Part shown: positions 17,520-43,801 of the stretch, in pieces | How the letters are laid out: the number at the start of each line of letters is the position of its first letter | How positions within the stretch are numbered: position 1 is the first letter of the stretch | Assembly (NCBI GenBank): GCA_018698675.1 | Contig: JABIPA010000059.1 | Coordinates: 15,784-79,783 of the forward strand | Direction: 5' to 3' | Source: a bacterium | GTDB lineage: Bacteria; Margulisbacteria; Marinamargulisbacteria; JABIPA01 | DNA length: 64,000 bases | Notes under the pieces: generated by a model | Told to the model about the DNA's origin: nothing | Seen by the model: the letters and a program-made list of their open reading frames with translations, nothing else | Databases searched by the model: none | Position numbers and translations under genes: made by a program

Positions 17520-19796
17520 TTAAGCTCGGTTGGGTTCGTATTTTTTTGCAAGTTTTAGCATCTCATCATAGTGGGCTCCGTCGGCAACTTTAACATACTC
17601 CAAAATATTTCTTAAAACTTCAGGAGTTTCGCTAAGCAAAGTAGGGTCATGGGTCATGCTTTCTTGAACTTGGTCTTTGTGTGAAAAAATATGAGTGAAA
17701 ATCAATATTTTAGTTTTTTTGTTATCGTCAAATAAAATCTTATTAAATTGGTCGGTGAAGTTGTCAGCGAGACTGGGAAATCTAAAACCCAAAAAAGTTT
17801 CTAAAAATCGTCTAGAAACGTTAGGCATTTGATAAAAATACTCTAATGATTTTTCTGCTGTCTTGTATTTGGAATTTATATATATTAAATAAAATAGATA
17901 GTTGTATTCGGAATCAAATCGCTCTAAAAGATTATCAAGCGGGAGTAGCCTGGAGAGTCTTTTATCATCGTTTTGTTCAGCTTTGACCATATAAAAACTG
18001 CTCACTTTGTCGTTACCACTTTTTTTAAACCAGCTTTTTACTAATCTGAAAAATGTAAAATTATGGGTAAATACGAACAGCTGATAGGAAGTATTTAGGC
18101 TATTGAACAGCATTGAATATGCATGAAAAATTGCATTTTGATCGAGACTTGAGACTGGGTCGTCAATTACAACAATTCCATTATCAAGGTCAAAATCCTT
18201 ATCATAAAGGCTTTTTATAAAATATGTAAAAGCTATTGCTGTTTTTTCTCCTTCACTTAAGTGATTTGCGATATCTCCGTTTCTAAGAATTTTATAGCCA
18301 TTTTCTTCAACATCAAACTTCAGTTGAGAATGACCTAGGTACCCGTGAAGTAATTTATCCATTTCTTCAGCAGGTTTTCGATGTTCAATAATATTGGCTT
18401 CGAATTTTTGGATACGACGTTCTATATTTGCCAAAAGATTATCGAACTTTTCTATCCTTTTAGTCGAATCTTCTATGAACATAGTGTCTTTCTTAAATTT
18501 ATCAAGAATTTCAGTGTTGATAATATGATTTTCAATATTCGACCTTGTAGCATCAATTTCGGATTTAAAATTCATCGTTCTTTCATTGTGTTTTTTTATT
18601 AGTTTATTTGACCTTTCAAATATAGTTAGGATTTCGTCGTCAAAATTTGGAATTATTAGATCCTCATATTGTGTTCGTTCATAAGAAATAGCTATAAAAG
18701 GATTCTTCTTCTTGCCTTGAAGAAGCCTCTTTAGCTCCTTAAGGAAGTTCGTTCTACTTTTTTCAAGGATTTTGATGGCATCTATCGTGCTTTTATAATT
18801 TGCATAATAGTCTTCATAAAGGGCTTCTGGGCTTATTAGCTCAACCTCTTCATTTAGGGACTCATCAATAGATTTTTCGACCTCCCCGATTTCGTGCATA
18901 AAATTTTGGAATTCAGCATTAAAATGTTGATTCAGATTATCGAGAACATCTGGGTTTATCTGGTTTTCGCAAAACAGACATTGAGAGGTTGCTCTCTGCT
19001 GATACAGACTTAATCCTCCTTTTACCCAATCCTGAAGCTCGCTATCTTCTTTTAACCTAGGAATAGGCTTGGAGGTCAATGTGCGTGAAAGAAGGGCAAT
19101 TGTTTTAGTCTCAATGTCTAATAGGAGGCTGGCGAATGGTGTTAGTTCTTCTAGGATGTTTTTTTGTTTAGAGGACTTTTTTATTTGAAATTCGGCAATC
19201 TGCTCGTCAGTAAAGGAAAGGGATTCAGTAGTCTTTAGCTCTTCAAAACTACCGAGCTTTTTTTTTAAGTTCGCTTGGGTATAATCTGTATAAATTGTTT
19301 TCTCAGGAGATCTAAGATCTTCTTTTATTCTTTTTGCTTTTTCAGAAAGAAATTTTTCCTGTTCTTTAATGATTTTATTTTTATTCTGTGCACGTTCATT
19401 TTTTTTGTCAGTAAGAATAATTGACTTCTCTTTGTATTTTTCAATTAATCGCTGAAACCTGATATTGCCTTCGCCTAAGAAGAATATTGGGGTTATAGTA
19501 TTTGACGAAGTAAAAATGTTTTTTTCAGTGAATGACTGATTAAAGACTTTAATTTTATTGTGAGAATAGCTACCTCTAGAGGTTAGGTTGTATATTGTGC
19601 TATCTGTCATTTCTAATTCAAAATCAAATTCATCATCATTGTTAGTAATGAAAGAACCTAAAAAAGTTGACAGAGTAGTCTTCCCTGAGCCATTCCATCC
19701 ATAAATTAAATTTAGTTTTTGAAAGTCTGGCAGGTTACTTGACCAAGTGTAGTCGCGAAAGCTTCTAAATTTTAAGCGCCTAATTTTTTGGATCAT
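17520..19796 (-). CDS. RloC/PrrC-like AAA_13-type ABC ATPase with zinc-hook coiled coil and C-terminal candidate anticodon nuclease domain
   Basis: The Walker A is 'IYGWNGSGKTTLS'. A long charged coiled-coil insert contains the CxxC 'SQCLFCENQ'. The ABC signature is 'LSEGEKTAIAF', the Walker B/D-loop is 'GIVVIDDPVSSLD', and the H-loop is 'VFTHNF'. The C-terminal ~150 aa contain 'SRRFLETF...(~35 aa)...FTHIFSH', resembling the PrrC/RloC R-x3-E...H triad. Confidence 0.65.
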   Translation of the reverse strand: MIQKIRRLKFRSFRDYTWSSNLPDFQKLNLIYGWNGSGKTTLSTFLGSFITNNDDEFDFELEMTDSTIYNLTSRGSYSHNKIKVFNQSFTEKNIFTSSNTITPIFFLGEGNIRFQRLIEKYKEKSIILTDKKNERAQNKNKIIKEQEKFLSEKAKRIKEDLRSPEKTIYTDYTQANLKKKLGSFEELKTTESLSFTDEQIAEFQIKKSSKQKNILEELTPFASLLLDIETKTIALLSRTLTSKPIPRLKEDSELQDWVKGGLSLYQQRATSQCLFCENQINPDVLDNLNQHFNAEFQNFMHEIGEVEKSIDESLNEEVELISPEALYEDYYANYKSTIDAIKILEKSRTNFLKELKRLLQGKKKNPFIAISYERTQYEDLIIPNFDDEILTIFERSNKLIKKHNERTMNFKSEIDATRSNIENHIINTEILDKFKKDTMFIEDSTKRIEKFDNLLANIERRIQKFEANIIEHRKPAEEMDKLLHGYLGHSQLKFDVEENGYKILRNGDIANHLSEGEKTAIAFTYFIKSLYDKDFDLDNGIVVIDDPVSSLDQNAIFHAYSMLFNSLNTSYQLFVFTHNFTFFRLVKSWFKKSGNDKVSSFYMVKAEQNDDKRLSRLLPLDNLLERFDSEYNYLFYLIYINSKYKTAEKSLEYFYQMPNVSRRFLETFLGFRFPSLADNFTDQFNKILFDDNKKTKILIFTHIFSHKDQVQESMTHDPTLLSETPEVLRNILEYVKVADGAHYDEMLKLAKKYEPNRA

Positions 19797-19897
19797 GCGA
19801 CCCTCATTTCGAGATTTCGTTGAATGTGTACCAGATGTGTACCAATTTTATTTCCCCTTAAAAGCAAAAAAACACCATTTAAGGTGCTTTTGTGACT

Positions 19898-19950
19898 AAA
19901 ATATATGGCGGGAGCGATGGGACTCGAACCCACGACCTCCTGCGTGACAG
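19898..19950. repeat. att-like direct repeat overlapping 3' half of intact tRNA-Asp
   Basis: The partner copy is the degenerate repeat at 17425..17477. Confidence 0.8.
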
Positions 19951-19983
19951 GCAGGCGTTCTAAACCAACTGAACTACGCCCCC
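19906..19983 (-). tRNA. tRNA-Asp (anticodon GTC)
   Basis: The reverse complement reads GGGGGCGTAGTTCAGTTGGTTAGAACGCCTGCCTGTCACGCAGGAGGTCGTGGGTTCGAGTCCCATCGCTCCCGCCA. This is a cloverleaf with a 7-bp acceptor stem, a GTC anticodon in a CTGTCAC loop, a GGTTCGAGTCC T-arm, and an encoded CCA. Confidence 0.9.
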
Positions 19984-28662: not shown

Positions 28663-29769
28663 TTAAAACATCATTACCTGACGAGCCATTTCTCTACCTA
28701 GAGGCGTCAAACTGAGCCGTGACTTATTACGAGTAATTAAGTTTTTCTGAACGGCTCTCTGAACTATTTTTTTTGCAAACCCTGCCGACCAAGCCATATG
28801 ATCAATCATGTTCTCTACGGTATTCTCCTGATCCTCATTGTCCAACCCTTCATGTCCTAAAATTTGAACCAATAGCATTTGAACAGAAAAATTAAGCTTC
28901 TTTTTAAAATGGCTCAACACTTTTGAAACGAGACCTCGTTCTCTTGCAAAAAATAAAGCCATCAAAAATAACACGCCATTCATTGTCGCCATCGAGCCAG
29001 CAATAGAAGCATCTAAAACGTAAGCCATACCATACCCCAACACGGCAGATGCGACGCCTACCGCCATACTTATGCCAATCATTCTGGATAACTTAGTCGT
29101 CAATAAAAAAGCGGTTGCAGGAGGAGCAATGATTAACGCCACAACCAAAACAGACCCAGCAACTTCGAATGCCCCAACGGTCGTAACACTTGTCACCGTC
29201 ATTAACCCGTAGTGAATTAAAACAGGAGAAAAACCCAATGACGTAGCCAATCCTTTATCAAAGGTTGCCAACTTTAACTCTTTATAAAATAGCAGTAAAC
29301 CAACAACATTAATCAACGATATTGTTCCCATCATCCATAACCCAACGGGACCAAGATCGAGCCCTCCAATATCCATCCTGTGGAAAGGAGCTAGTGCAAG
29401 CTCTCCTAATAAAACTGCATCTAAATCAATATGAACATTTCCCGCATATTTGCTAATTAATATGACTCCTATGGAAAAAAATAATGGAAACACTAAACCA
29501 ATGGCAGCATCTTTTTTTAACCTATTCGTGTTAATCAAAACCTCCGTTAAGGTAACAGTCAAAACACCAGTCAAAGCGGCTCCAATAATTAAAAGAGGCG
29601 AATCCAAGGTCTTTACCATAAAAAACATCACAACAATCCCAAGTAAAATAGCGTGACTGATTGCATCACTCATTAGCGCAACTCCACGCAAAACCAAGAA
29701 TACCCCCGGAATTGCACAAGAAAAAGCGGTTAACGCCGCAATTAAAATAATTTCAGTTTGAAAACTCAT
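28663..29769 (-). CDS. metal ABC transporter permease (YtgD/ZnuB/MntB family) with C-terminal winged-helix (DtxR-like) extension
   Basis: An 8-TM permease core (~275 aa) is followed by ~90 aa reading 'LVQILGHEGL...VENMIDHMAWSAGFAKKIVQRAVQKNLITR..SRLSLTPLGREMARQV', an HTH plus wing. Confidence 0.8.
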   Translation of the reverse strand: MSFQTEIILIAALTAFSCAIPGVFLVLRGVALMSDAISHAILLGIVVMFFMVKTLDSPLLIIGAALTGVLTVTLTEVLINTNRLKKDAAIGLVFPLFFSIGVILISKYAGNVHIDLDAVLLGELALAPFHRMDIGGLDLGPVGLWMMGTISLINVVGLLLFYKELKLATFDKGLATSLGFSPVLIHYGLMTVTSVTTVGAFEVAGSVLVVALIIAPPATAFLLTTKLSRMIGISMAVGVASAVLGYGMAYVLDASIAGSMATMNGVLFLMALFFARERGLVSKVLSHFKKKLNFSVQMLLVQILGHEGLDNEDQENTVENMIDHMAWSAGFAKKIVQRAVQKNLITRNKSRLSLTPLGREMARQVMMF

Positions 29770-30881
29770 GCCTGCATCCCCACTAATAAAGATCTTACGT
29801 ATTTGTGGCCCTTAATTGTTAGCCCCCAATGTTTATATGCCGTCGAATGAATATAACCACTCTCTTCCAATTTCCTAATAACCGAATCCAAACTAGCACC
29901 TCCAACGGATCTCAACGCCTGAATATCATGAGCATGAGTGACATCGTCGTGACCTTCTGAAAGATAAAACAGATTAGTTAAAAACGTATCTTCCTTGACT
30001 TGCTTTTGATTCGATTTATTCCTCTTCCATGCCCAAAAAAGGCCACGATTTGGAGCAAACCCTAATGAAGCAAAAACAATAGTACTAATAGCAACAACTA
30101 TAACGGGGCCAGTAGGTAAGTTATTAATCTGACTACTAAACATAACTCCGACTAATCCTGCTAATGCTCCAAAAATAGCAGCTAAAACAACCATCATTCC
30201 TAACCTATCCGTCCATTGTCGAGCGGCGGCAGCTGGAGCAATTATCATCGCACTCATCAAAACAACCCCAACCGTTTGCAACCCAATAACGATGCTACAA
30301 ACAATCAAACTCGTTAAAAATATATCTAATCGTTTTTGAGGAAACCCCAATGTTGCTGCAAACTCAGGATTAAACGACACTAACTTAAATTCCTTCCAAA
30401 AAAGAGTAAGTACCGCCAAAATGACAACGCCAAAAATTGTCATCACAATGACATCCTCTTCTAATAAAGTTGCTGCATTTCCGAATAGAAACCTGTTAAG
30501 CCCAGCCTTATTAGCGGTTGGAAGTCGTTGAATAATTGTAAGAAGAACCATTCCGAATCCGAAAAATACAGACAACACGATCCCGAGTGCGGCATCTTTT
30601 TTAAGAGAGGTATACTCCGTAATTAAAAACATGCCTAGAGATGCCAATATTCCAGAAATAATTGCGCCTATTAATAATACTAATAGACTTTTACTGTACG
30701 TTAACATGAAGGCTACCGCAATTCCTGGCAAAGCGGCATGAGATATAGCATCTCCCAACAAGCTTTGCTTCCTTAGAACGGCAAAACTACCCAAGGCACC
30801 CGAAACAATCCCTAATACCAACGTGCCTAATACAACTGTGCGGACCGTGTAATCAAAAAACAAATCATGAATAAGAGTCAT
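29766..30881 (-). CDS. metal ABC transporter permease (YtgC-like) with C-terminal winged-helix extension
   Basis: The permease core is followed by 'LTNLFYLSEG...IQALRSVGGASLDSVIRKLEESGYIHS...WGLTIKGHKYV', a wHTH. It overlaps the downstream permease gene by 4 nt. Confidence 0.8.
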   Translation of the reverse strand: MTLIHDLFFDYTVRTVVLGTLVLGIVSGALGSFAVLRKQSLLGDAISHAALPGIAVAFMLTYSKSLLVLLIGAIISGILASLGMFLITEYTSLKKDAALGIVLSVFFGFGMVLLTIIQRLPTANKAGLNRFLFGNAATLLEEDVIVMTIFGVVILAVLTLFWKEFKLVSFNPEFAATLGFPQKRLDIFLTSLIVCSIVIGLQTVGVVLMSAMIIAPAAAARQWTDRLGMMVVLAAIFGALAGLVGVMFSSQINNLPTGPVIVVAISTIVFASLGFAPNRGLFWAWKRNKSNQKQVKEDTFLTNLFYLSEGHDDVTHAHDIQALRSVGGASLDSVIRKLEESGYIHSTAYKHWGLTIKGHKYVRSLLVGMQA

Positions 30882-30883
30882 TA

Positions 30884-31648
30884 CTAGAGGGCGTCCAAAT
30901 TAATAGTAGTATCTTTTCCAACAAAAGGTGTTTTTCCGCTGTACGCCTGACTCAAGTTTTCTTGAGTTATTATATCTTTGACCGGTCCCATCGCTATTTT
31001 TCTAACGTTTAACAATAGTGCCCAATCAAAATAATCTTTTAGGGTTTGCAAATCGTGATGAACAACTATAACCGTTTTTTCTTTTCCTCTTAATTCTTTT
31101 AAAAGTGCCACAATTGCTTTTTCGGTCTTAGCATCAACCCCCACAAACGGTTCATCCATAAAATAAATTTGAGAATCTTGAGCCAGTGCTCGTGCTAAAA
31201 ACACGCGTTGTTGTTGACCTCCAGATAATTGATTTATCTGACGATATGCAAAATCCGCCATCCCTACTTTTTCAAGACATTCCATAGCTATTTCCACATC
31301 TCGTTTACCTGGCCGTTTAAACCAACCTAAATGACCATAACGCCCCATCAATACAACATCTAACGCATTCGTAGGAAAGTCCCAGTCGACGCTTCCGCGT
31401 TGAGGAACATATCCGACTGAACGAAAAGACTTTTGATAGACATTCCCGTTAATAAAAACACTACCTGCAGCGGGCTTTATTAAGCCTAATATGGCTTTTA
31501 TCAGTGTCGTCTTCCCTGCCCCATTTGGTCCTACAATAGCCATCAATACCCCGTGAGGAACCTTGATATCGATATCCCATAGAACGGGCTTCTCTTTATA
31601 AGCGACTGTTAAGTCACGAACCTCTACTGCAGGAATGATTGAATTCAT
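30884..31648 (-). CDS. metal ABC transporter ATP-binding protein (ZnuC/YtgB-like)
   Basis: The Walker A is 'GPNGAGKTTL', the ABC signature is 'LSGGQQQRV', and the Walker B is 'IYFMDEP'. Confidence 0.9.
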   Translation of the reverse strand: MNSIIPAVEVRDLTVAYKEKPVLWDIDIKVPHGVLMAIVGPNGAGKTTLIKAILGLIKPAAGSVFINGNVYQKSFRSVGYVPQRGSVDWDFPTNALDVVLMGRYGHLGWFKRPGKRDVEIAMECLEKVGMADFAYRQINQLSGGQQQRVFLARALAQDSQIYFMDEPFVGVDAKTEKAIVALLKELRGKEKTVIVVHHDLQTLKDYFDWALLLNVRKIAMGPVKDIITQENLSQAYSGKTPFVGKDTTINLDAL

Positions 31649-31649
31649 T

Positions 31650-32810
31650 TTAAAACCTTACATTTGCGATTAGGAGAAGTCCACTAACGTCAGTTTCTTG
31701 GCCAGCGGTTTCCTTTTCATAGTTATCCAACACCCATTCTGCTTTAAGCAAAACATTTTCTTTATGAAAGTACCCAATTCCTAGCTCGTATCGAGTTATC
31801 GTTTGGTCCGGAGAAACAGTTGCTCCAAAATTAAACGCTGGGTTTGGTAGAGTGGAGGACATTCCTGCTCCTGAACCATCGTTATCTTCTGGTATCCAAG
31901 TTGATACTCTCCCTGAAACAAACATATCTCCTACATTATGTCTTGCTTCTGCAATAATAGACGTAACCTTGTCTTCTGTTCCATCATGCTCATCCCCATA
32001 AGTTAATTGAGAATAAGATCCAATCAATTCAGTTGATGTTCCAATTATCGAGATACCGTCAACCATCCACCCTTGGAAATCTGACGAAAAGCCAGATGTG
32101 GCGTTTTTAATATCATTGCTTCTCATATATGTTCCACTTAATTCAGTTTTAATTTCTTCGATAAATAAGGACTGCCCGATTACCAATTCAAATTGACCGT
32201 CTGGATTCGTCGCTGATTCATCCGTACCATTCGAAATTGCCAACGTAGACGTCCCTACGGATGAATCCCAATTAATCATTGCTCCCAATGTATTCAATGT
32301 TCCCATTGGTCCTGCAAAGGCACTGTATAACAAAGGATTAATTATTAAGTTATTGTTAAATGTATCCGCATTATTTGATAACATTCCTGTTTGTTGTCCA
32401 AAGGGAGTATCATAAGACCCTACAACCACAGTTACTGTTCTCGCTCTATTTGTATATTCAATACCTATATCTGTTAACTCAGCCCCGGGACCAGGGAACC
32501 CGTATGTTCCATTTCCTGGGCTTGTTTGTAATTGAAGATAGGCCTTAATTCCTGGCGCTAATTTCGTCTCAAAATCAATGTTTGCAGCATAATCAAATTG
32601 ATATCGATTAGTAGCTGAGTTTGTACTTTGGGTAAGAAGATTTAATCCTCCTAAAATCGACCCACCAACGCTTACATTATTCATAAAATCACTAATTTTT
32701 ACGCGCTCTTCTAGTGGAAATAATCCAGATACTTCTAAATTTGCCATTGTAGGGCTTACCAAAATAGCTAGTGACGCCGCCAATATTCCTATATTTTTTA
32801 AATTTTTCAT
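31650..32810 (-). CDS. outer-membrane beta-barrel (porin-like) protein embedded in metal-uptake operon
   Basis: A signal peptide ('AILVSPTMA') is present. Amphipathic beta-strand periodicity runs throughout. The aromatic C-terminus '...LLLIANVRF' has a terminal Phe. The gene is tightly packed between the SBP and ATPase genes. Confidence 0.5.
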   Translation of the reverse strand: MKNLKNIGILAASLAILVSPTMANLEVSGLFPLEERVKISDFMNNVSVGGSILGGLNLLTQSTNSATNRYQFDYAANIDFETKLAPGIKAYLQLQTSPGNGTYGFPGPGAELTDIGIEYTNRARTVTVVVGSYDTPFGQQTGMLSNNADTFNNNLIINPLLYSAFAGPMGTLNTLGAMINWDSSVGTSTLAISNGTDESATNPDGQFELVIGQSLFIEEIKTELSGTYMRSNDIKNATSGFSSDFQGWMVDGISIIGTSTELIGSYSQLTYGDEHDGTEDKVTSIIAEARHNVGDMFVSGRVSTWIPEDNDGSGAGMSSTLPNPAFNFGATVSPDQTITRYELGIGYFHKENVLLKAEWVLDNYEKETAGQETDVSGLLLIANVRF

Positions 32811-32898
32811 TTTTCTTCCTTTTTAAGTCGTATTTTGCAAGCAAATATTCGCTTTATAACTTCAACACGCCTGTCTCTTACATAGATAGTTCTATCAT

Positions 32899-33945
32899 CT
32901 AGTGAGTATGATTATCTCCGCCATGATGATGATGGCCTTGTTCAATACTTTTTTTACGTGGAGCCAATCCATTTAATATCGTAGTCGTATTATGCTCAAC
33001 CATTCCAATATAAGTCCCTTCAGCTGTTCCTGGATTTCCCATTGCGTCTGAAAATAACTCGCCACCAATTTTAACATCCCACCCACGTGACTGAGTTGCT
33101 CTTTGAACGGCTTCAATATTTCTTTTTGAAATCGATGATTCAATGAAAATGGCTGGGATTTTGTTATCTACTATATAAGTCGCTAAATTTTGAATATCTC
33201 TCGTACCCGCTTCAGATTCCGTACTTATCCCCATCAATCCTTTTACAACGAAACCATAAGCTAGTCCGTAATAATTAAAAGCATCATGAGCTGTAACTAA
33301 AACACGTTGCTCTTTAGGAATCATATCCGTTTTTTCCTCAATCCACGTGTTCAACTTATTTAATTTTGTTAAATAGGCCGCCTTGTTCCTTAAAAACGCT
33401 TCTTTATTTTCAGGATCTAGTGTTATCAACGTATCTCCAACGGCATCTACAGCATACGCCCATAACTCAACGTCAAACCACACATGAGGATCAAATTGCC
33501 CTTCGAATTCAGGTGGTTTTTTTAGTTTATCTTTAGGAATACGTTCGGCAACAGCGACTGTTGGTTTCTGTTTATTTAGCTTTTTAAAAATGTCCCCCAT
33601 TTTGGCTTCTAAGTGTAATCCATTATAAAAAATAATATTTGCGTCTGATAATTTCCGTACATCTCCTTCGCTTGCCCGATAAAGATGAGGGTCCACTCCA
33701 GGCCCCATTAATCCAACAACGTCAACATATTCTCCACCAACATTGGTTACTATGTCAGCTATCATTCCGGTTGTTGCAACCGCGTGTACTAAATTCTCAT
33801 TCTTTGTTCCTGATTTGTCATCGTTACATCCAAACAATCCTAAACTAACAATTCCAATCATTCCTGCTCCGATCAAAAATGACGTCGCTTTTAAAAACGT
33901 ATTCAACGTAAAAAATTGTTCTCTTTTTTGATTTATATTTTTCAT
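32899..33945 (-). CDS. metal ABC transporter substrate-binding protein (ZnuA/TroA/YtgA cluster A-I) with His-rich C-terminus
   Basis: A lipoprotein signal 'LGLFGCN' is present. The fold is TroA-like. The C-terminal tail is 'GHHHHGGDNHTH'. Confidence 0.85.
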   Translation of the reverse strand: MKNINQKREQFFTLNTFLKATSFLIGAGMIGIVSLGLFGCNDDKSGTKNENLVHAVATTGMIADIVTNVGGEYVDVVGLMGPGVDPHLYRASEGDVRKLSDANIIFYNGLHLEAKMGDIFKKLNKQKPTVAVAERIPKDKLKKPPEFEGQFDPHVWFDVELWAYAVDAVGDTLITLDPENKEAFLRNKAAYLTKLNKLNTWIEEKTDMIPKEQRVLVTAHDAFNYYGLAYGFVVKGLMGISTESEAGTRDIQNLATYIVDNKIPAIFIESSISKRNIEAVQRATQSRGWDVKIGGELFSDAMGNPGTAEGTYIGMVEHNTTTILNGLAPRKKSIEQGHHHHGGDNHTH

Positions 33946-33963
33946 TTTTAATTAATTCCTTTT

Positions 33964-34659
33964 CTAATTTATTGGGTCTACCCAAATATTTTGACAAATT
34001 TTAGTACTCAAACTCGATGTTTTTTCACCAATTCTAACCTGTACTGTTCCATCAAATTCCAATATTCCGGAAACAGTAATCAACACCCCTATTGTTATTC
34101 CTTCGTTCTCAAGATGTTCTAATAATTCCGAGTCAAAATTACTAACTCTTACAATTTTACAAACATCCCCTTTTTTACTCTCTGACAAAGGTATTGCAGT
34201 CTTATGTGTTGGAATGATTCCGTTTTTGTCAGGAATAGGCGCTCCATGAGGGTCGAATTGTGGGAACCCTAATTTCTTATCCATTTTATTTATAAGATAG
34301 TCTGAAGCAAAATGTTCCAAAACTTCTGCTTCTTCATGCACCATATTTCGAGGAATATCTAAGTATTCATGAAGATAAAGCTCAATTAATCGATGACGCC
34401 GGATAACCAATTTCCCCTTTTTGATTCCTTCGGGTAATAAACGAACACCCTTGTATGGAATGTAGTCTAATAATTCTTTGGTCGCTAATTTCTTAACCAT
34501 TTCACTTACGGCGGCAGACGTTACTCCAAGTTTATTTGCAATATCTTGAGTTTTTACGGAACCGGAAGACACATTCATCAATTTATAAATTGCCTTTAAA
34601 TAATCCTCGGTACTTATGGACTCTTTCTTTGTTTCATCGGTAATTTTTATAATGCTCAT
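33964..34659 (-). CDS. DtxR/MntR-family metal-dependent transcriptional regulator (with C-terminal FeoA/SH3-like domain)
   Basis: The N-terminal HTH is 'TEDYLKAIYKL...VKTQDIANKLGVTSAAVSEMVKKLATKELLDYIPYKGVRLLPEGIKKG'. The protein is 231 aa. Confidence 0.8.
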   Translation of the reverse strand: MSIIKITDETKKESISTEDYLKAIYKLMNVSSGSVKTQDIANKLGVTSAAVSEMVKKLATKELLDYIPYKGVRLLPEGIKKGKLVIRRHRLIELYLHEYLDIPRNMVHEEAEVLEHFASDYLINKMDKKLGFPQFDPHGAPIPDKNGIIPTHKTAIPLSESKKGDVCKIVRVSNFDSELLEHLENEGITIGVLITVSGILEFDGTVQVRIGEKTSSLSTKICQNIWVDPIN

Positions 34660-34697
34660 ACTTTATTTCCTTCTACCCAACTATAATTAGATTTTAG

Positions 34698-34719
34698 AAG
34701 TTTAAGCATGCTTAAACTT
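34698..34719. promoter_or_regulatory. 22-bp perfect palindrome (candidate DtxR-family operator) upstream of the regulator/ytg-like operon
   Basis: 'aagtttaagcatgcttaaactt' is its own reverse complement. It lies ~40 bp upstream of the DtxR-family gene start at 34659. Confidence 0.45.
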
Positions 34720-35081
34720 TTTGTCAAGCACCCTTTATTTAATAGTTGGGAATAACCAATAAATAAATTTTTGCCTTAAGTACAGATTAATTATCCAATT
34801 TTTTACAGAGGTTTTTAAAGCGAAGATATAAAAGCAATACCAACGTCGAGGCTTATTTTCTTGGCATCTCAGTGAATACATTTATATATAGCTATAGAGG
34901 TGTTTTTTATAATACAGATCCTGAAAAAATGCAGAAAAGAGCTCTTACGTTATAGATGCCTATTCACTAATTCGATAGTATTCTTAGTTTTTAATAAAAA
35001 AATCGTGTTCGAAACGAAGTTCGTGAAGAAAAAAACGTTCATGTTGAAAGGAACCTAATTGAGTGTCCTCAACCTACTGTT

Positions 35082-35852
35082 CTATTTACAGCACCCTTCA
35101 TTAGCGCATCCTGAGTCACTTTTTTTACCAGGCTTATTAAAGCTAAATAATATCGTTTGAAAAAACGACTTTATTGCAACTTTCAATAATTTAAATTTCT
35201 TAATAGAAACTTCTCCAGTTTCACGTTGCCGATGAGGAACATCTATCTGAACAATCCGAAGCCCTAAATAATTCACCATTCCAGAAATAATTACATTGGG
35301 TGCAAACGTATCTTTAGGAATACCCTCATATGTAGCTCGAAGTTTTTCTACTCTCATCAATCGATATGGCGAATTAACGTCATAGACACCCGTTCCATAA
35401 AATAGCCGGACACATAGTCGAGAAATCAATGAAATCAATCGTCGCGGTAATGGGTTTTCCCGGTTTTCACGAATACCTATTAAAAAATCAGCATCGTTTC
35501 GTTGCTCCCATAATAGTTTAAAATGAGCTGCTGGAAGCTCATTATCAGAATCTATCTGAAAAAGCCATGTATGGCTTAAATTATCACAATAGCCCTTTAA
35601 AATAGTAGGACCATGTCCAGAATTTGCTTTATCATGCACAGTTAGCTCGGGGACTTTTTTCTCAATTTCCTTACAAACGCTTAACGTATTATCTTTTGAC
35701 CCATCATTGTACAAGTGAATCGAAAAATCGATAGCTAATGGCCGTAAATTATCTACCCAATCTTGAATTACAGTATCAATAATCTCCGTTTCATTATAAA
35801 CAGGGATAACAATCGCTAATGATTCTTTTTCGATTTTTTTAGAGTCTGTCAT
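35082..35852 (-). CDS. family 2 glycosyltransferase (GtrB/DPM1-like polyprenol-phosphate sugar transferase)
   Basis: GT2 motifs are present: 'LAIVIPVYNETEII', 'YNDGSKDNT' and 'FQIDSDNE'. Confidence 0.75.
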   Translation of the reverse strand: MTDSKKIEKESLAIVIPVYNETEIIDTVIQDWVDNLRPLAIDFSIHLYNDGSKDNTLSVCKEIEKKVPELTVHDKANSGHGPTILKGYCDNLSHTWLFQIDSDNELPAAHFKLLWEQRNDADFLIGIRENRENPLPRRLISLISRLCVRLFYGTGVYDVNSPYRLMRVEKLRATYEGIPKDTFAPNVIISGMVNYLGLRIVQIDVPHRQRETGEVSIKKFKLLKVAIKSFFQTILFSFNKPGKKSDSGCANEGCCK

Positions 35853-35854
35853 GA

Positions 35855-37030
35855 TTATTCCTTTTCAACGGCCTTTATTTTTGTTTCATATGTCGCCAAT
35901 GCCTTTGCAATGCTCTGATGCATATCAAAATACTTATATTCACCTAAGCGTCCACCAAATATAACATTTTTCTCAGATTTCGTTTCGTCGAGATATTTCT
36001 GATAAACGGTCTGGTTATCTGGTGTGTTAATTGGATAATAGGGTTCTTCGGGGTTTACTTCAGAAAATTCCTTAATTATTAAAGACGTTCCCTCTTTGTG
36101 GTCTTTTTCAGGATGAAGATGTTTAGGCTCGTGGATTCTTGTAAACTCAACCTCAAGTTCTGCATAATTCATTACGGATGAGCCTTGATAATCATCATAA
36201 GGAACAGCCTCTTTTTCAAAACGAATACTGCGCCATTCTAACGTTCCATGTTTGTAATCAAAATATCGATCAACAGGACCTGTGTACACTATTTTTTTAG
36301 AATCAGGAATATGGGCCTTGATGTCAAAAAAGTCCACATTTAACAAAACGTCGATATTATCATTTTTCAACATTTTTTCAAAAATAGCACCATATCCATC
36401 GGTTGGAATGCCTTGCCATCTACTAAAATAATAGTTCTCGTTATAGCTCTTTCTAAAAGGCAACCTGTTTAAAATAGACGCAGGCAGGTCCTTTGGGTCC
36501 TTTTGCCACTGTTTCATCGTATATCCCTTTATAAAGGCTTCATACAATGGACGACCAATCATGGTTATCGCTTTTTCTTCAAAGTTTTTGGGTTCTTTAA
36601 TGTTTTCCTTCTCGATTTCCTTCTTCAAAAAAGCATCGACTTCATATGGCCTAAGTTGAACATCATAAAACATGTTTATCGTCTCCAAATTAATTGGCAT
36701 TTGATAAACCTTCCCTTTGTACGTTGTTAGTACTTGATGAAAATAGCCATTAAATTCGGTGAATCGGTTAACATAATCCCACACTTTCTCGTTCGAAGTA
36801 TGAAAAATATGAGTCCCATATGTATGAAAATGCACACCAGTTTCTGGATCGTCTTCTGAATAACTATTCCCACCTATATGAGATCTTCGGTCCAGAACTA
36901 GAACCTTTTTACCTAATTCTGTTGCGATTCGTTCGGCAATTGTAGCCCCAAAAAAACCAGCCCCACATATTATGTAATCTGCTCTCTCAATACGATCTTT
37001 ATACTCATTTAATTCCATATTATTTCTCAC
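35855..37030 (-). CDS. glf: UDP-galactopyranose mutase
   Basis: The FAD-binding N-terminus is 'YIICGAGFFGATIAERI...VLVLDRRSHIGGNSYS' and a 'GTHIFHT' motif follows. The protein shows full-length similarity to Glf. Confidence 0.9.
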   Translation of the reverse strand: MRNNMELNEYKDRIERADYIICGAGFFGATIAERIATELGKKVLVLDRRSHIGGNSYSEDDPETGVHFHTYGTHIFHTSNEKVWDYVNRFTEFNGYFHQVLTTYKGKVYQMPINLETINMFYDVQLRPYEVDAFLKKEIEKENIKEPKNFEEKAITMIGRPLYEAFIKGYTMKQWQKDPKDLPASILNRLPFRKSYNENYYFSRWQGIPTDGYGAIFEKMLKNDNIDVLLNVDFFDIKAHIPDSKKIVYTGPVDRYFDYKHGTLEWRSIRFEKEAVPYDDYQGSSVMNYAELEVEFTRIHEPKHLHPEKDHKEGTSLIIKEFSEVNPEEPYYPINTPDNQTVYQKYLDETKSEKNVIFGGRLGEYKYFDMHQSIAKALATYETKIKAVEKE

Positions 37031-37451
37031 TATTCTCTTTTATATTTTGTGGTTTAAACGTAATCCATTTATTCAATCCAAATTGAACAAAAACGACGAC
37101 TCCAATTGTCAGTACTTTTCCAATAATCGGTTCTATGCCTAATTTTTCGACTTGAATCCATAATAATATTGAACTCAACCCTAATCCCACAGTACCAACC
37201 ATCAAGAAGGATCCATATCTCCATAAAAATCTATCTTTAGTCTTAAAATTCACCAACGCATTCCATAAAAAGTTGTGGGTAATTGCACTATACACGCTAA
37301 TTCCATTAGCAAGTAAATAATGCCACTTTAATACAGAGGACATGAAATAAAACCCTATTAAATCAATTGAAAGCCCCATAACACCGATTAAACTATAGGC
37401 AACAAATTGTCGTTGGATTTCCGTTAATCGTTCATTCCACATTTTTTTCAC
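37020..37451 (-). CDS. GtrA-family membrane protein (polyprenol-linked sugar flippase component)
   Basis: 143 aa with 4 TM helices. The N-terminal 'FVAYSLIGVMGLSIDLIGFYF' is GtrA-like. Confidence 0.7.
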   Translation of the reverse strand: MKKMWNERLTEIQRQFVAYSLIGVMGLSIDLIGFYFMSSVLKWHYLLANGISVYSAITHNFLWNALVNFKTKDRFLWRYGSFLMVGTVGLGLSSILLWIQVEKLGIEPIIGKVLTIGVVVFVQFGLNKWITFKPQNIKENSEK

Positions 37452-37457
37452 AGGGTA

Positions 37458-38627
37458 TTAACTTGCGAGCAGACGCTTGTCCTGCTTACTACTCGTGGCT
37501 TTAGGTTTAAACGTTACGCCACTTGATACGAAAATCAAAATAGAAATCAACATAATTTGAGTGAACAAATGGTAATACGGCCATAAAGTAATACTTAATA
37601 AAACTAATACGACATATCGTCCTACATTTTTTAATCGGTCTAAAACAAAGAGAGCTGGCATTATTTGTAAAACGAATGAGTAGTCTTTCATTCGAGGAAC
37701 CATAATCCCGTAAGCTAGTGCAAAAAAGGCAACTTTATATCGATCCTCTTCTTTTCTCATCACAAACAAATAGCTAAACCCAAATATCGCTGCAAATATA
37801 AATAGCAAGGTTTTATAAACATTTTGTGGATTTAAGGAACCTCCCGCGACGGCTTTAAAAAATGGGACAAAATCATAAATAATCCATACCAATAACGATG
37901 GATTCGTATATCCAGTGCTATCCAAAACATTTGGATTTTGTAAAAAATTCAAACTTATTTCAGGAAAACAAAAAAACGTAGCTAAGTTAATTACAAGAAA
38001 TGAGGCGACACCTTCAGACATCGCGTGTAAATTTTTGGCATCTGGTTTAAATAAAAATATCCCCAAAAATACGATCAAAGGCCCCTTACAAAGACCTGCT
38101 AAAAGAATGCCAATCATGGCGAGTTTCAACTTACCTCTCAAGAAAAACGCAATTCCGGACCATAAGAATAGTTGTTCAAAAATTGAAATATTTCCAGCTA
38201 TAATATCCAAACGAATCGTACAATGAAAAGCACCTATCGCTAGAACCGCCAGCACAAATGGATCCGTTCGTCTCTTTAAATCAAACCCTTTCATCCATAC
38301 ACAAAAAAGAGCCATAGCGGCTAATAACTTTGCAGCTAAAAAAACTAACCTAGCCGACTCATAAGGCAACTTAGTTAACGGCCAAAATATTGGCAACATA
38401 TATGGAGCATATGCAAAGTGGATATAAGTAGGAACATTCTCGCCCTTAATATGGGCTACTGAAGATGCCCGATAAGGGTTTAATCCCTCAACAGCTGCTG
38501 TTGTTCCATAATAATACGATTGAAAGTCACTCATATAGTGGGACTTCATGGTTATCGACCCCATATATAAGACCCAAGCGAAAAAAATTAGTATCATTAT
38601 ATTTTTTAAGGAACTTTTTGATATCAT
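37458..38627 (-). CDS. polytopic membrane glycosyltransferase-like protein (GT-C/DUF2029-like, GtrC analogue)
   Basis: 389 aa with >=10 TM helices. It lies immediately upstream of the gtrA-like, glf and GT2 genes on the same strand. Confidence 0.4.
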   Translation of the reverse strand: MISKSSLKNIMILIFFAWVLYMGSITMKSHYMSDFQSYYYGTTAAVEGLNPYRASSVAHIKGENVPTYIHFAYAPYMLPIFWPLTKLPYESARLVFLAAKLLAAMALFCVWMKGFDLKRRTDPFVLAVLAIGAFHCTIRLDIIAGNISIFEQLFLWSGIAFFLRGKLKLAMIGILLAGLCKGPLIVFLGIFLFKPDAKNLHAMSEGVASFLVINLATFFCFPEISLNFLQNPNVLDSTGYTNPSLLVWIIYDFVPFFKAVAGGSLNPQNVYKTLLFIFAAIFGFSYLFVMRKEEDRYKVAFFALAYGIMVPRMKDYSFVLQIMPALFVLDRLKNVGRYVVLVLLSITLWPYYHLFTQIMLISILIFVSSGVTFKPKATSSKQDKRLLAS

Positions 38628-38630
38628 TAT

Positions 38631-39029
38631 TTGAATTATAATCTATTTTCTCACCATGAAGAAGAATCCGTTTTAAAACTATTGTATACTTCAGTACAAA
38701 TGCCGATGAAAATCATACGTAAAGGGTCCTGTAAAAAACGAGGGATTTGTTGTAAAAGCATTCATGTCGAACTAAAAACGAGATGGATCAAAAACGTTAA
38801 GTTCTGGCTATTTATTCTTAAATTTTCTCCCCTAAAACATCTAACGTTTACAGAGATTGATAATGAAGGTGATATGCGATTTAAATGCCGCCATTTAACA
38901 AAGCAAGGTCAATGCGGCATTCACAAAACCCGACCCATGTTTTGTAGACTTTATCCATTTCAATCCACTTATACGAATAACAAAATGTTACCTGGATGTG
39001 GATATTGGTTTGAAAAACAGTTGGAATAA
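38631..39029 (+). CDS. YkgJ-family cysteine-cluster protein (CxxCxxCC Fe/Zn-chelating domain)
   Basis: The Cys clusters are 'CKKRGICCK' and 'CRHL...GQCGIHKTRPMFCRLYPF'. Confidence 0.5.
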   Translation: MNYNLFSHHEEESVLKLLYTSVQMPMKIIRKGSCKKRGICCKSIHVELKTRWIKNVKFWLFILKFSPLKHLTFTEIDNEGDMRFKCRHLTKQGQCGIHKTRPMFCRLYPFQSTYTNNKMLPGCGYWFEKQLE

Positions 39030-39061
39030 CCTCTTTACTTAGCGAATACTAAGCAAAGAGG
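39030..39061. terminator. bidirectional hairpin between convergent ykgJ-like and gatB genes
   Basis: 'cctctttacttagcgaatactaagcaaagagg' forms a 13/14-bp stem with a 5-nt loop. An A/T-rich tract follows. Confidence 0.45.
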
Positions 39062-39083
39062 CCTCTACAATATATTTTTAGCT

Positions 39084-40541
39084 TTAACCCAAAATAGACT
39101 TAAGAATCATATCCTTAACAACGTCCGGCTTAGCACGTCCTTTGGATTCTTTCATGACTTGTCCCATCAAAAACCCGGCAGCAGCTGTTTTACCATTTTT
39201 AATTTTCTCTACAACTGCTTGGTTTGCAGCTAATACGTCATCTACAATTGATTGAAGAGCCCCTTCATCTGAAATTTGAGTCGATCCAGATGCGTCTACA
39301 ATAGACTTGGCAGTTTTACCTGTTTCAATCATTTGTTTCAATACATCTTTTGCTATTTTCCCAGATATTTTTCCCTGCTCTTTCAAGCTTAGTAAAGATA
39401 ACAATTCCTCTGGACTTACCTTTGTATTTCCAAAATCATCAGATGTTTCCTTCAAAAAGGAGTTAAAATCTCCGACGATCCACTTCGCCGTTTCTTTTGC
39501 CGTGACCGATAACTTAGCCGTCACTAATAATTCATTTGCTTTCTCAAAATAAGTATTCATATCCATGTCGCCGATTATAACCTTGACCTCGAAGTCTGAA
39601 AGTCCCAATTCAGAAGAATATCTTTTTCGCTTAGCCAAAGGAAGTTCAGGCATAGCTTGCCGTTCTTCATCAATTTGAGCGTCAGATAATACCAACGGAA
39701 TCAAATCAGGTTCGGGAAAATAACGATAATCATGAGCATCTGCTTTTCCTCTTAATGAATGTGTCGTTTGCGTTGCATCATCAAAATGACGTGTTTCTTG
39801 AACAACTGTTCCACCGTCTAAAAGTATTAATTTTTGACGCTTGATTTCATGCTGAATCGCTCGTTCAACAGAACGAAATGAATTTAAGTTTTTTACCTCT
39901 GCCCTGGTACCAAACTCTTTTTGCCCAACTGGTCGTAACGATACATTTGCATCGCATCGTAAACTTCCTTCTTCCAAGTTCCCATCACACACACCAATAT
40001 ACATCACAATTTCATGCAGCATTTCAAAATACTCTCTTGCTTCTGCGGCAGTCCTAAAGTCAGGTTCAGATACTATTTCTATCAAAGGAACAGATGCCCT
40101 ATTTAAATCCACTAAACTACCCGTAGATCCAGAAACACCCTCAGCGCCTTGGTGAACTAATTTCCCCGCGTCTTCTTCAATATGAATTCGGGTAATTCCT
40201 ATTCTTTTTTTGTTTTGAATAAGATCCATATGTCCGCCCAAGCAAACAGGAAACTCGAATTGGGTAATTTGATAGTTTTTAGGCATATCCGGATAAAAAT
40301 AGTTTTTTCTGGAAAAAACAGATCTGTTCTGAATATCACAATTAATTGCTAATCCAGCACGAACCGCCATTTTAGCAACCATTTCATTTAAAACAGGTAA
40401 TGCACCGGGCATTCCCAAGCACGTCGGGCACACATTTGTATTTGGCTGCCGTCCAAATTCATTCGGACACGAACAAAAAGCCTTCGATTTCGTTTTTAAC
40501 TGAACATGAACTTCTAATCCAATAACGCTTTCAAATTCCAT
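39084..40541 (-). CDS. gatB: Asp/Glu-tRNA(Asn/Gln) amidotransferase subunit B
   Basis: The N-terminus 'MEFESVIGLEVHVQLKTKSKAFCSC' is present. The full length is 485 aa. Confidence 0.95.
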   Translation of the reverse strand: MEFESVIGLEVHVQLKTKSKAFCSCPNEFGRQPNTNVCPTCLGMPGALPVLNEMVAKMAVRAGLAINCDIQNRSVFSRKNYFYPDMPKNYQITQFEFPVCLGGHMDLIQNKKRIGITRIHIEEDAGKLVHQGAEGVSGSTGSLVDLNRASVPLIEIVSEPDFRTAAEAREYFEMLHEIVMYIGVCDGNLEEGSLRCDANVSLRPVGQKEFGTRAEVKNLNSFRSVERAIQHEIKRQKLILLDGGTVVQETRHFDDATQTTHSLRGKADAHDYRYFPEPDLIPLVLSDAQIDEERQAMPELPLAKRKRYSSELGLSDFEVKVIIGDMDMNTYFEKANELLVTAKLSVTAKETAKWIVGDFNSFLKETSDDFGNTKVSPEELLSLLSLKEQGKISGKIAKDVLKQMIETGKTAKSIVDASGSTQISDEGALQSIVDDVLAANQAVVEKIKNGKTAAAGFLMGQVMKESKGRAKPDVVKDMILKSILG

Positions 40542-42496: not shown

Positions 42497-43801
42497 TTAA
42501 TATAAGTCAAACGCTATAATGGTAACGTCGTCTGCAAGCGGGTTCCCATCTAAAAATTTATTTAAAGACCGGGATAACTGCTCTTCCAGATCCCAATTCT
42601 TTCTATTCGAATTATACGCTACTACTTCTTTTCGAAAACGTTCATACCCGTATCTCTCGCCAGATCTATTCTTAGCGTCAAAAATACCGTCGGTCGAAGC
42701 AATAAGTAAATCTCCCGGCTGATACTGAAAGCTTCCCTGAATAAAATCATTAGTTTCTGAAAAGCCTATAGGGGGTGATATCTCATCCAAATCAATAAAA
42801 ATCCCTTTTCGAAAAATCGATAGAAAATCCAACCCTGCTCTACAATATTTAATGGTTTTTTCTTTAGTGTTAAAAGAGATATAAACAGCAACACACATTC
42901 TTTTAAGCGTTTTAATTTCTTCAACTTCACTATTCATAATTTGCATAATTTCTCGAGGAGATATATTGCCCTTAATTTGTTTTCTTAAAATCTGATGTAG
43001 CTGAATTGCAACATAACTGGCTTCGATTCCTTTTCCTGCCACATCGGCCAAAAAATACCCTATATCCTTTATACTTGAGACTCTTATATCATAAAAATCA
43101 CCACTCACCATATAGTGCGATGGAGAATGAAAAACCATCGGCATAATCCCGCTAAATTTGTGCAATTTAGGCAAATACCGTTCCTGGAATTTTCGTGCAA
43201 GCTTATATTCTTCGTCACGTTTAGATCTATCTCCTAGTTCTTGGTTCGCCTTTTTTAACTCCGTTTCATTCTGATAAAAAAAATAAACAAATAAAAATGT
43301 GAATAGAAACGCAGTAGCTACAGCAAACTCATAAATTATAAGTTGAGAGAATGGACCAATATACTCACGATACCCAGCTAAAACATCAGGATAAAAAATG
43401 TCAAAAAAATCAAACAGAAACCGCCCAATCACCGGAAAAGAAGCAGAAATAAATATTTCAGCTTTTTCATGAGACTCAAAAAAAACTAAGGGAAGTGAAA
43501 TAATCGGTATAAAAATTAATGGAGCGCCTGTATCCTTTCCAAGCATTACCGAATAACAAAATAAAGTAAAAGAAAGCCCTGCTATCAAAACAATTTTAGA
43601 GTATTTGGCTTGATTAAATTTTTCCAATAATAATGTCGTCAATGCCGTCACATACAAACTAGACATTGTTAATGCAGACCTAGGTAAATCAAAAAAAACG
43701 AATAGAAATATATAAGGGATCCCCATTATTATCAAAAACTTTGCAATCAATGAGACTAATTCAAATTCCCCCCCTTTTATTTTCGTAATGAATTTTGTCA
43801 A
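42497..43801 (-). CDS. membrane-anchored PP2C-type (SpoIIE/RsbU-like) serine phosphatase
   Basis: The N-terminal ~190 aa are polytopic membrane domain. The C-terminal PPM motifs are 'SGDFYD', 'LADVAGKGIEASY', 'IASTDGIFDA' and 'DDVTIIAFD'. Confidence 0.75.
   Translation of the reverse strand: MTKFITKIKGGEFELVSLIAKFLIIMGIPYIFLFVFFDLPRSALTMSSLYVTALTTLLLEKFNQAKYSKIVLIAGLSFTLFCYSVMLGKDTGAPLIFIPIISLPLVFFESHEKAEIFISASFPVIGRFLFDFFDIFYPDVLAGYREYIGPFSQLIIYEFAVATAFLFTFLFVYFFYQNETELKKANQELGDRSKRDEEYKLARKFQERYLPKLHKFSGIMPMVFHSPSHYMVSGDFYDIRVSSIKDIGYFLADVAGKGIEASYVAIQLHQILRKQIKGNISPREIMQIMNSEVEEIKTLKRMCVAVYISFNTKEKTIKYCRAGLDFLSIFRKGIFIDLDEISPPIGFSETNDFIQGSFQYQPGDLLIASTDGIFDAKNRSGERYGYERFRKEVVAYNSNRKNWDLEEQLSRSLNKFLDGNPLADDVTIIAFDLY

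Follow-up and report, generated by a model that had tools for sequence, protein, structure and literature searches.

We describe a cluster of four genes in a 64-kb stretch of bacterial DNA (contig JABIPA010000059.1; the whole stretch analyzed is hereafter called the window). The cluster encodes a polytopic membrane glycosyltransferase (GT) of the GT-C type, a small GtrA-family membrane protein, the UDP-galactopyranose mutase Glf, and a glycosyltransferase of family GT2. The four genes probably form a Gtr-like multi-component system for extracytoplasmic glycosylation in which the sugar is galactofuranose (Galf). An initial annotation of this DNA had suggested that a Gtr-like module and Glf together make and use polyprenol-phosphate-galactofuranose; this is the best-supported explanation of the locus and now has comparative genomics behind it, although we still infer it. 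Based on its sequence and modeled structure, the GT2 protein is predicted to be a UDP-Galf:polyprenyl-phosphate galactofuranosyltransferase (polyprenyl-P-Galf synthase), and the GT-C protein is predicted to be an extracytoplasmic transferase which uses a lipid-linked sugar.

The four-gene operon and its mutase

The four open reading frames (ORFs) have the same direction and occupy window positions 38627..35082 in the order GT-C, GtrA, Glf, and GT2 (table 1), all on the minus strand and exactly where four co-directional genes had been annotated. Successive genes either overlap or are separated by 1–15 nt. The GT-C gene ends with TAA at 37458 and is followed by a GtrA start at GTG 37451 or ATG 37442. 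The GtrA gene ends with TAA at 37020, and the probable Glf start is the ATG at 37018 (giving 387 amino acids, aa), which has GAGAAA 5′ of it; the alternative start, GTG at 37030, would produce an 11-nt overlap with GtrA. The Glf gene in turn ends with TAA at 35855 and is followed by the GT2 ATG at 35852, with AAGGA 5′ of it. Considering these very short or overlapping junctions and the Shine–Dalgarno-like purine runs upstream of the Glf and GT2 ATG codons, the four genes appear to constitute a single compact operon. A scan of positions 34500..39200 for promoters and terminators was uninformative, with counts equal to the shuffled expectation. Horizontal transfer of the operon was also considered and set aside, as the GC content of the operon (0.34–0.35) is similar to that of the remaining window and thus gives no such signal.

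The same arrangement was detected in other sequences. An identical four-gene cluster is present on two independent metagenome contigs (L010 and L011), and the closest genome locus (L014, metagenome-assembled genome (MAG) SI072_bin15 from Saanich Inlet) keeps the four-gene order and has a GT2 protein 88% identical to that of the window. Another contig (L009), whose GT-C protein is 58% identical, keeps gatB, a CxxCxxCC gene, GT87, and GtrA up to the contig end. Because the order is kept in L010, L011, and L014 and partly in L009, and because the link among glf, GT2, and a membrane protein recurs across phyla (see below), the four-gene arrangement is more than a chance juxtaposition. With regard to the flanking genes, a YkgJ-type CxxCxxCC zinc/iron-chelating protein is encoded divergently from GT-C in the window (38631-39029, plus strand) and is a neighbor of GT-C in L009 too. 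In L009, but not in the window, a 67-aa ORF without Pfam match (L009:2718-2921) separates the GT87 gene from GtrA.

Glf scores above the curated cut-off of TIGR00031, the equivalog family of UDP-galactopyranose (UDP-Galp) mutases. Among PDB sequences, it matched the UDP-galactopyranose mutase (UGM) of Mycobacterium tuberculosis (1v0j/4rpg, E = 1e-126, residues 15–383) and that of Escherichia coli (1i8t, E = 8e-99), in both cases over nearly the full length. These results bear out the annotated identity of the gene. A glf pseudogene, which had been raised as a possible objection, was ruled out by the full-length frame without frameshift, the equivalog score, and the UGM match. Glf is thus an intact, bona fide mutase which, by homology, makes UDP-alpha-D-Galf from UDP-Galp.

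Table 1. Genes of the candidate Galf operon (window coordinates)
Feature	Position	Strand	Length and family matches
GT87-like polytopic GT-C glycosyltransferase	37458..38627	(-)	389 aa; Pfam GT87 PF09594, E=8e-11, 42.6 bits (cut-off 25)
GtrA-family small membrane protein	37020..37451	(-)	143 aa; GtrA_DPMS_TM PF04138, E=1.5e-20, 73.9 bits
UDP-galactopyranose mutase Glf	35855..37030	(-)	391 aa; GLF PF03275, E=4e-75; NAD_binding_8; TIGR00031 342.2 bits (cut-off 303.75)
GT2 / GT-A glycosyltransferase without transmembrane helix	35082..35852	(-)	256 aa; Glycos_transf_2 PF00535, E=1e-9

The GT2 family and its genomic context

The GT2 protein had been annotated as GtrB/DPM1-like. Its nearest relatives are indeed ArnC, GtrB, and dolichol-phosphate mannose synthase (DPMS), but it has no transmembrane (TM) helix, scores below every NCBIfam equivalog cut-off, and contains DSDxE instead of DxDxQ. 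Profile A1, built from 28 members of the family, matched the PDB sequences of ArnC (6.6e-20), GtrB (1.5e-17), and DPMS (PfDPMS; 1.2e-10), and all these alignments extended through the C-terminal R-x-x-G-E-(V)S-x-K region. When the AlphaFold2 (AF2) model of the window protein (pLDDT 90.2) was searched with Foldseek, the top 25 matches were all ArnC, GtrB, or DPMS, with query TM-scores (TMq) of 0.59–0.76. As the best PDB sequence matches and the top 25 folds are the same three enzymes, the protein resembles polyprenyl-phosphate GTs and not glycan-elongating GT2 enzymes. The two C-terminal TM helices of GtrB-type synthases are not present; the protein lacks a hydrophobic segment (maximal 19-residue Kyte–Doolittle mean 1.39) and has only a C-terminal helix at residues 219–238.

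The best NCBIfam matches were ArnC (E = 1.2e-13) and PgfS (E = 3.5e-8), both sub-threshold. Since the scores are under the equivalog cut-offs (ArnC 50.8 vs 529 bits, PgfS 33 vs 500, PpgS 17 vs 370), the protein belongs to none of the named equivalogs GtrB, ArnC, DPMS, PgfS, and PpgS. On the other hand, its own family is tight, with 53–61% identity between phyla and the invariant blocks YNDGSKD, NSGHGPTIL, DVNxPYRLM, and TFAPN. The GT2 protein is best described as a member of a distinct, uncharacterized, and widely distributed family.

Both the low equivalog scores and the motif of this family weigh against a role in polyprenyl-P-Galf synthesis. DxDxQ is a metal- and diphosphate-binding motif and has been proposed as a hallmark of polyprenyl-P GT2 enzymes (PMC10821137). 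The window protein contains D101-S-D-N-E105, and regular-expression counts gave DxDxE in all 81 family members counted and never DxDxQ; in the alignment, the glutamate of the family motif corresponds to the glutamine of ArnC. The missing hallmark would fit a galactofuranosyltransferase of the conventional, cytoplasmic kind (such as GlfT1, GlfT2, or WbbI) which acts on a lipid-PP-linked or other glycan, the GT-C and GtrA proteins serving another lipid-linked substrate. The known bacterial Galf transferases GlfT1 and GlfT2 are themselves GT2 enzymes, and the adjacency of Glf implies that UDP-Galf is involved and says nothing of the acceptor. We nevertheless consider this explanation unlikely. 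The nearest relatives in both sequence and structure are exclusively polyprenyl-P GTs, and the similarity includes the R..GE.S.K region and the interface helix, whereas no GlfT2 chain was found among the 21 PDB sequence matches (E ≤ 0.01) or in the top 50 Foldseek matches. In addition, the genomic neighborhoods described below repeatedly contain GT-C partners, even fused to GT2, and no recurrent priming transferase or second GT.

To examine the distribution of this family, one genome per species was scanned, and at least 461 of these genomes contain a relative of the GT2 protein. They represent approximately 15 phylum-level lineages, including Bacteroidota, Bdellovibrionota, Desulfobacterota, Myxococcota, Verrucomicrobiota, Lentisphaerae, Kiritimatiellae, Planctomycetota, Marinimicrobia, Cloacimonadota, Omnitrophota, Melainabacteria, WOR-1, the candidate phyla radiation (CPR), and Bacillota. 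Among the carriers are Alistipes and Akkermansia from the gut, Flavobacteriaceae from the sea, Bdellovibrio, and numerous candidate phyla. Cultured carriers include Bdellovibrio sp. HCB274 and HCB290 (L020 and L023), Polaribacter sp. Hel1_85 (L042), Alistipes onderdonkii (L085), and Victivallis vadensis (L060). For 80 loci, which represent the best-scoring relatives and not a random sample, ORFs were called and searched with the window proteins. Glf was located within 6 kb of GT2 in 52 of these loci and within 300 nt in 39, where it typically overlaps or abuts the GT2 start. A polytopic membrane protein (at least six predicted TM helices and 300 aa) adjoins GT2 on the same strand in 54 loci, and in seven further loci GT2 is fused to a domain of 7–10 TM helices. 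Two of the fusions combine GT2 and GT87 in a single polypeptide (L085:27-2153 in Alistipes onderdonkii and L059:9995-11878 in a Kiritimatiellae MAG), and these are a Rosetta-stone link to the kind of GT-C encoded in the window; the 7–10-TM-helix domain of the other five (L027, L045, L062, L075, and L076) has no family assignment. Nineteen loci have a GtrA homologue within the module, adjoining and on the same strand, and it often overlaps the GT2 start. Unbiased clustering of all neighbors within 4 kb revealed recurrence across phyla only for Glf (51 loci), GtrA (18 loci), and polytopic proteins. No second cytoplasmic glycosyltransferase or priming transferase was recurrent within this distance of the 80 GT2 genes.

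The membrane partners themselves are diverse. Pfam searches of the 54 adjoining proteins identified PMT_2 in 17 and GT87 in three, and the largest phmmer cluster of partners has 25 members, some of them PMT_2-positive. Using the profile of the window GT-C in an iterated hidden Markov model (HMM) search against 61 partner membrane proteins of other loci, we found matches only to the window protein itself and to that of L014, and the partners thus belong to different GT-C families and are not orthologues.

A second explanation is that the GT2 protein makes another lipid-linked hexose, for instance polyprenyl-P-mannose, -glucose, or -Galp, as would fit a PimE-type GT87 enzyme, Glf being a co-located bystander. 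Characterized GT87 enzymes use polyprenyl-P-mannose, a fact which also weighs against Galf as the sugar here, and the window GT-C is structurally closest to PimE. Members of the GT2 family are named “dolichol-phosphate mannosyltransferase” by the Joint Genome Institute (JGI), but these names are automatic annotation. Moreover, 28 of the 80 loci have no glf in the flank fetched, although several such flanks end early, and in the complete genome SCSIO 12741 the GT2 gene has neither glf nor a recognizable membrane partner among the called neighbors within 7 kb. The glf-less loci are, however, interleaved with the glf-linked ones and are not a clade of their own. L059, for instance, lacks glf, yet its GT2 is 93% identical to that of L054, which is glf-linked. 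Considering that Glf is the sole recurrent soluble enzyme next to GT2 across these lineages and that the chance of finding glf within 6 kb of an arbitrary gene should be well below 1%, a bystander Glf is quite unlikely.

It is also conceivable that polyprenyl-P-Galf is a primer, elongated in the cytoplasm and then moved en bloc by the GT-C protein, or that it is an end-product glycolipid. There is a precedent in lactococcal polysaccharide (PSP) synthesis, in which GlcNAc-P-C55 formed by WpsA/WpsB is first elongated and then flipped and transferred by a GT-C enzyme (PMC10821137). The operon contains no further GT genes, and none recur near members of the GT2 family, which makes this variant highly unlikely. 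All three explanations are less well supported than a polyprenyl-P-Galf donor.

Membrane proteins and the proposed pathway

The Pfam GT87 match and the predicted GT-C fold agree with the polytopic GT-C-like protein of the initial annotation. The start of this protein has elsewhere been called at M11 (giving 379 aa). In a Foldseek search with its AF2 model (pLDDT 84.8), the top matches were all GT-C proteins, with PimE (9dm5) as the best (E = 7e-6, TMq 0.63), followed by PIGU, GPI-MT-I, ALG3, ALG9, PglB, and ArnT. A profile of the GT-C subfamily (A2) likewise had a single match among PDB sequences, the PimE-like mannosyltransferase 9dm5 (E = 2.7e-4). Multiple conserved positions were observed in the subfamily: an invariant D34 in a DF..YYY motif after TM1, further invariant residues in D..AGNISIFEQ, and a near-invariant PRMKDYS. 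The catalytic aspartate of GT-C enzymes is usually located after TM1; the A2 alignment to PimE spans only residues 69–287, so D34 lies outside it. An exhaustive HMM search with A2 retrieved 759 representatives at E ≤ 1e-30 (6009 with a threshold relaxed to E ≤ 1e-3), compared with 11 relatives in a word-indexed search. Thus, this GT87-like subfamily of ~400 aa is much larger than it first seemed and mostly uncharacterized. GT-C alone was rejected as a marker of the system, as the distant relatives P0003, P0005, and P0010 occur in unrelated contexts.

The GtrA protein has three hydropathy-predicted TM segments and three to four TM helices overall; no match to PDB sequences was found, even at E ≤ 10. 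Type-III DPMS has a GtrA-like domain as its membrane part, and this domain may flip dolichol-phosphate-mannose (Dol-P-Man) (PMC12992685). On the other hand, some GT2 polyprenyl-P synthases without TM helices need a small membrane partner, as in GacI/GacJ and WpsA/WpsB (PMC10821137). By analogy with both, the window GtrA may be a flippase for the lipid-linked sugar and/or a membrane anchor of the TM-less GT2. The family assignment of the initial annotation (a GtrA-like flippase) therefore stands, whereas flipping is just a proposal and a role as anchor or activator of GT2 is equally possible.

A reasonable pathway can be proposed from these data. Glf, whose enzyme identity is assigned by homology, would convert UDP-alpha-D-Galp to UDP-alpha-D-Galf. 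The TM-less GT2, held at the inner face of the membrane by its C-terminal helix and probably by the GtrA-like protein, would then transfer Galf from UDP-Galf to polyprenyl (undecaprenyl) phosphate, as suggested by fold, motifs, synteny, and fusions. The resulting polyprenyl-P-Galf would be expected to be the beta anomer, GT2 being inverting. It may be flipped by GtrA, or by a GT2–GtrA complex akin to type-III DPMS, and the GT87-like GT-C protein might finally transfer Galf to an acceptor on the outer face, such as a glycolipid, a lipopolysaccharide (LPS) core, a glycan, or a protein. GT2 enzymes invert, and so do the GT87/PimE and ArnT/PMT-type GT-C families. As the GT2 and its partner GT-C families are both inverting, an alpha-D-Galf product would be expected if the GT-C protein inverts in the way PimE, ArnT, and the PMTs do.

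Elsewhere in the window, a 479-aa protein (4613-6052, minus strand) contains a GT9 (heptosyltransferase) domain. It suggests an LPS-type core and so a possible acceptor pathway for a Galf module.

Besides the motif, the equivalog scores, the glf-less loci, and the mannose donors of known GT87 enzymes, several other points weigh against this pathway. A UDP-glucose 4-epimerase, whose presence had been proposed as a check, was not found in the window: tblastn of the 64 kb with a GalE-like neighbor from Bdellovibrio gave no match, and a galE-like gene is nearby in just three of the 80 GT2 loci. GtrA is associated with only 19 of these 80 loci. The distant GT-C relatives mentioned above (25–30% identity) have no glf, GtrA, or GT2 neighbors. 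The donor sugar and both acceptors (the lipid and the final one) are inferred. With regard to novelty, no description of polyprenyl-, undecaprenyl-, or dolichyl-phosphate galactofuranose or of a Glf-coupled Gtr system was found in the open-access full-text literature, and an earlier description is possible.

In every route of Galf incorporation which we found in the open-access literature, UDP-Galf serves as the direct donor on the cytoplasmic or Golgi side. The biosynthetic pathway of alpha-Galf is still unknown according to a 2025 review (PMC12290620), and is reported as unknown in another review (PMC3520571). We tentatively raise the possibility, to which we give somewhat less than even weight, that the DSDxE GT2 proteins are unrecognized, phylum-spanning UDP-Galf:polyprenyl-phosphate galactofuranosyltransferases, and that together with interchangeable inverting GT-C enzymes they represent the missing route to alpha-D-Galf. 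If a lipid-linked Galf donor exists, a hexofuranose would join the repertoire of extracytoplasmic glycosylation, a conserved GT2 family of hundreds of species would gain a function, and alpha-Galf would have a concrete, testable mechanism. To our knowledge, Galf is absent from mammals, which makes Galf enzymes interesting as antigens, drug targets, and glyco-engineering tools.

Other genes in the window and comparison with known systems

The window probably derives from a marine Margulisbacteria-type MAG. Its DnaE (46185..49742, minus strand) has named relatives in Candidatus Margulisiibacteriota/Marinamargulisbacteria, with 51–58% identity; on this basis a chlamydial origin was rejected, which leaves a remark in the initial annotation about Chlamydiae-type envelopes without basis. 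Several other genes were also observed. The region 28663-34659 (minus strand) encodes, after an MntR/DtxR-type repressor, a ZnuA-like binding protein together with an ABC ATPase and two permeases. Inside this operon, a 386-aa protein (31650..32810) with an N-terminal hydrophobic segment, no Pfam match, and the C-terminus ...ANVRF is possibly a porin of the outer membrane devoted to taking up metals. At 13324-19983, a tRNA gene (19909..19983, minus strand) lies beside a 758-aa AAA_13 protein (PF13166, 449 bits) and a 940-aa AAA_11/AAA_12/UvrD-type helicase, and this region may be a defense or integration island. The remaining observations are a 457-aa protein with two CDP-alcohol phosphatidyltransferase stretches (59056-60429, plus strand), a SpoIIE/PP2C phosphatase with a hydrophobic N-terminal region (42497-43801, minus strand), an ankyrin-repeat protein (12004-13233, minus strand), and SelO (9193-10665, plus strand).

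The operon shares features with several known systems. The window GT-C is best matched, in sequence as well as in fold, by PimE and other alpha-1,2-mannosyltransferases of CAZy family GT87, which are also similar in size (~390–415 aa). However, identity is only 16–17% in the structural alignment, and the donor in the window is predicted to be polyprenyl-P-Galf and not polyprenyl-P-mannose. The type-III DPMS enzyme of Pyrococcus furiosus (PfDPMS, 5mlz) has a GT-A domain and a GtrA-like four-helix TM domain which may flip the product (PMC12992685), and it was a Foldseek match of the window GT2 (E = 4.6e-13, TMq 0.70). In this enzyme the GT-A and GtrA-like parts are fused, whereas in the window they are encoded by separate genes with glf between them; the donors also differ (GDP-Man vs predicted UDP-Galf).

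The GlcNAc-P-Und synthases GacI/GacJ of Streptococcus pyogenes and WpsA/WpsB of Lactococcus each combine a TM-less GT2 acting on undecaprenyl phosphate (Und-P), with amphipathic C-terminal helices, and a small membrane protein from a neighboring gene which both activates and anchors it (PMC10821137). The window GT2 is TM-less with a C-terminal helix too, and its operon encodes a small membrane protein. On the other hand, the window partner belongs to the GtrA family by Pfam, the predicted donor is UDP-Galf and not UDP-GlcNAc, and the motif is DSDxE instead of DxDxQ.

The pentofuranose systems of Citrobacter youngae O1/O2 (GT136) and mycobacterial arabinosylation from decaprenylphosphoryl arabinose (DPA) are similar in that a furanose is transferred from a polyprenyl-monophosphate donor by an extracytoplasmic GT-C enzyme (PMC11127046); Und-P-linked pentofuranose donors and GT-C enzymes were shown in 2024 to give alpha-furanosides (PMC11127046). 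However, these donors are derived from phosphoribosyl pyrophosphate (PRPP) via a phosphoribosyltransferase, a phosphatase, and epimerases, with flipping by MATE or SMR-like proteins (PMC11127046), whereas UDP-Galf and a GT2 enzyme are predicted for the window. Neither Galf nor galactofuranose is mentioned in that paper (PMC11127046; no text matches).

A further comparison is with the Gtr systems, that is, GtrA/GtrB/Gtr* of Shigella and Salmonella phages and the corresponding GtcA, CsbB/GtlA, and YfhO/GtlB proteins for lipoteichoic and wall teichoic acids (LTA/WTA). In these systems, a single sugar is loaded onto polyprenyl-P by a GT2 enzyme, as predicted for the window, and this enzyme works with a GtrA-family protein and a polytopic GT-C (PMC11127046). 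All three types of component are present in the window: a GT2 similar to polyprenyl-P GTs, a GtrA-family protein, and a transferase of the GT-C fold. A conserved synthase (GtrA/GtrB) combined with a variable GT-C (Gtr*) also resembles the situation described here, in which one GT2 family has interchangeable GT-C partners. The differences are that the sugar in the window is predicted to be Galf, supplied by a UGM encoded in the operon, and that the GT-C is GT87-like; unlike GtrB, the window GT2 has neither the two C-terminal TM helices nor DxDxQ, and GtrA is dispensable in most related loci. By analogy, the locus would work like a Gtr-type three-component system, and what appears to be new is the predicted sugar, the synthase family, and the TM-less, split form of the synthase.

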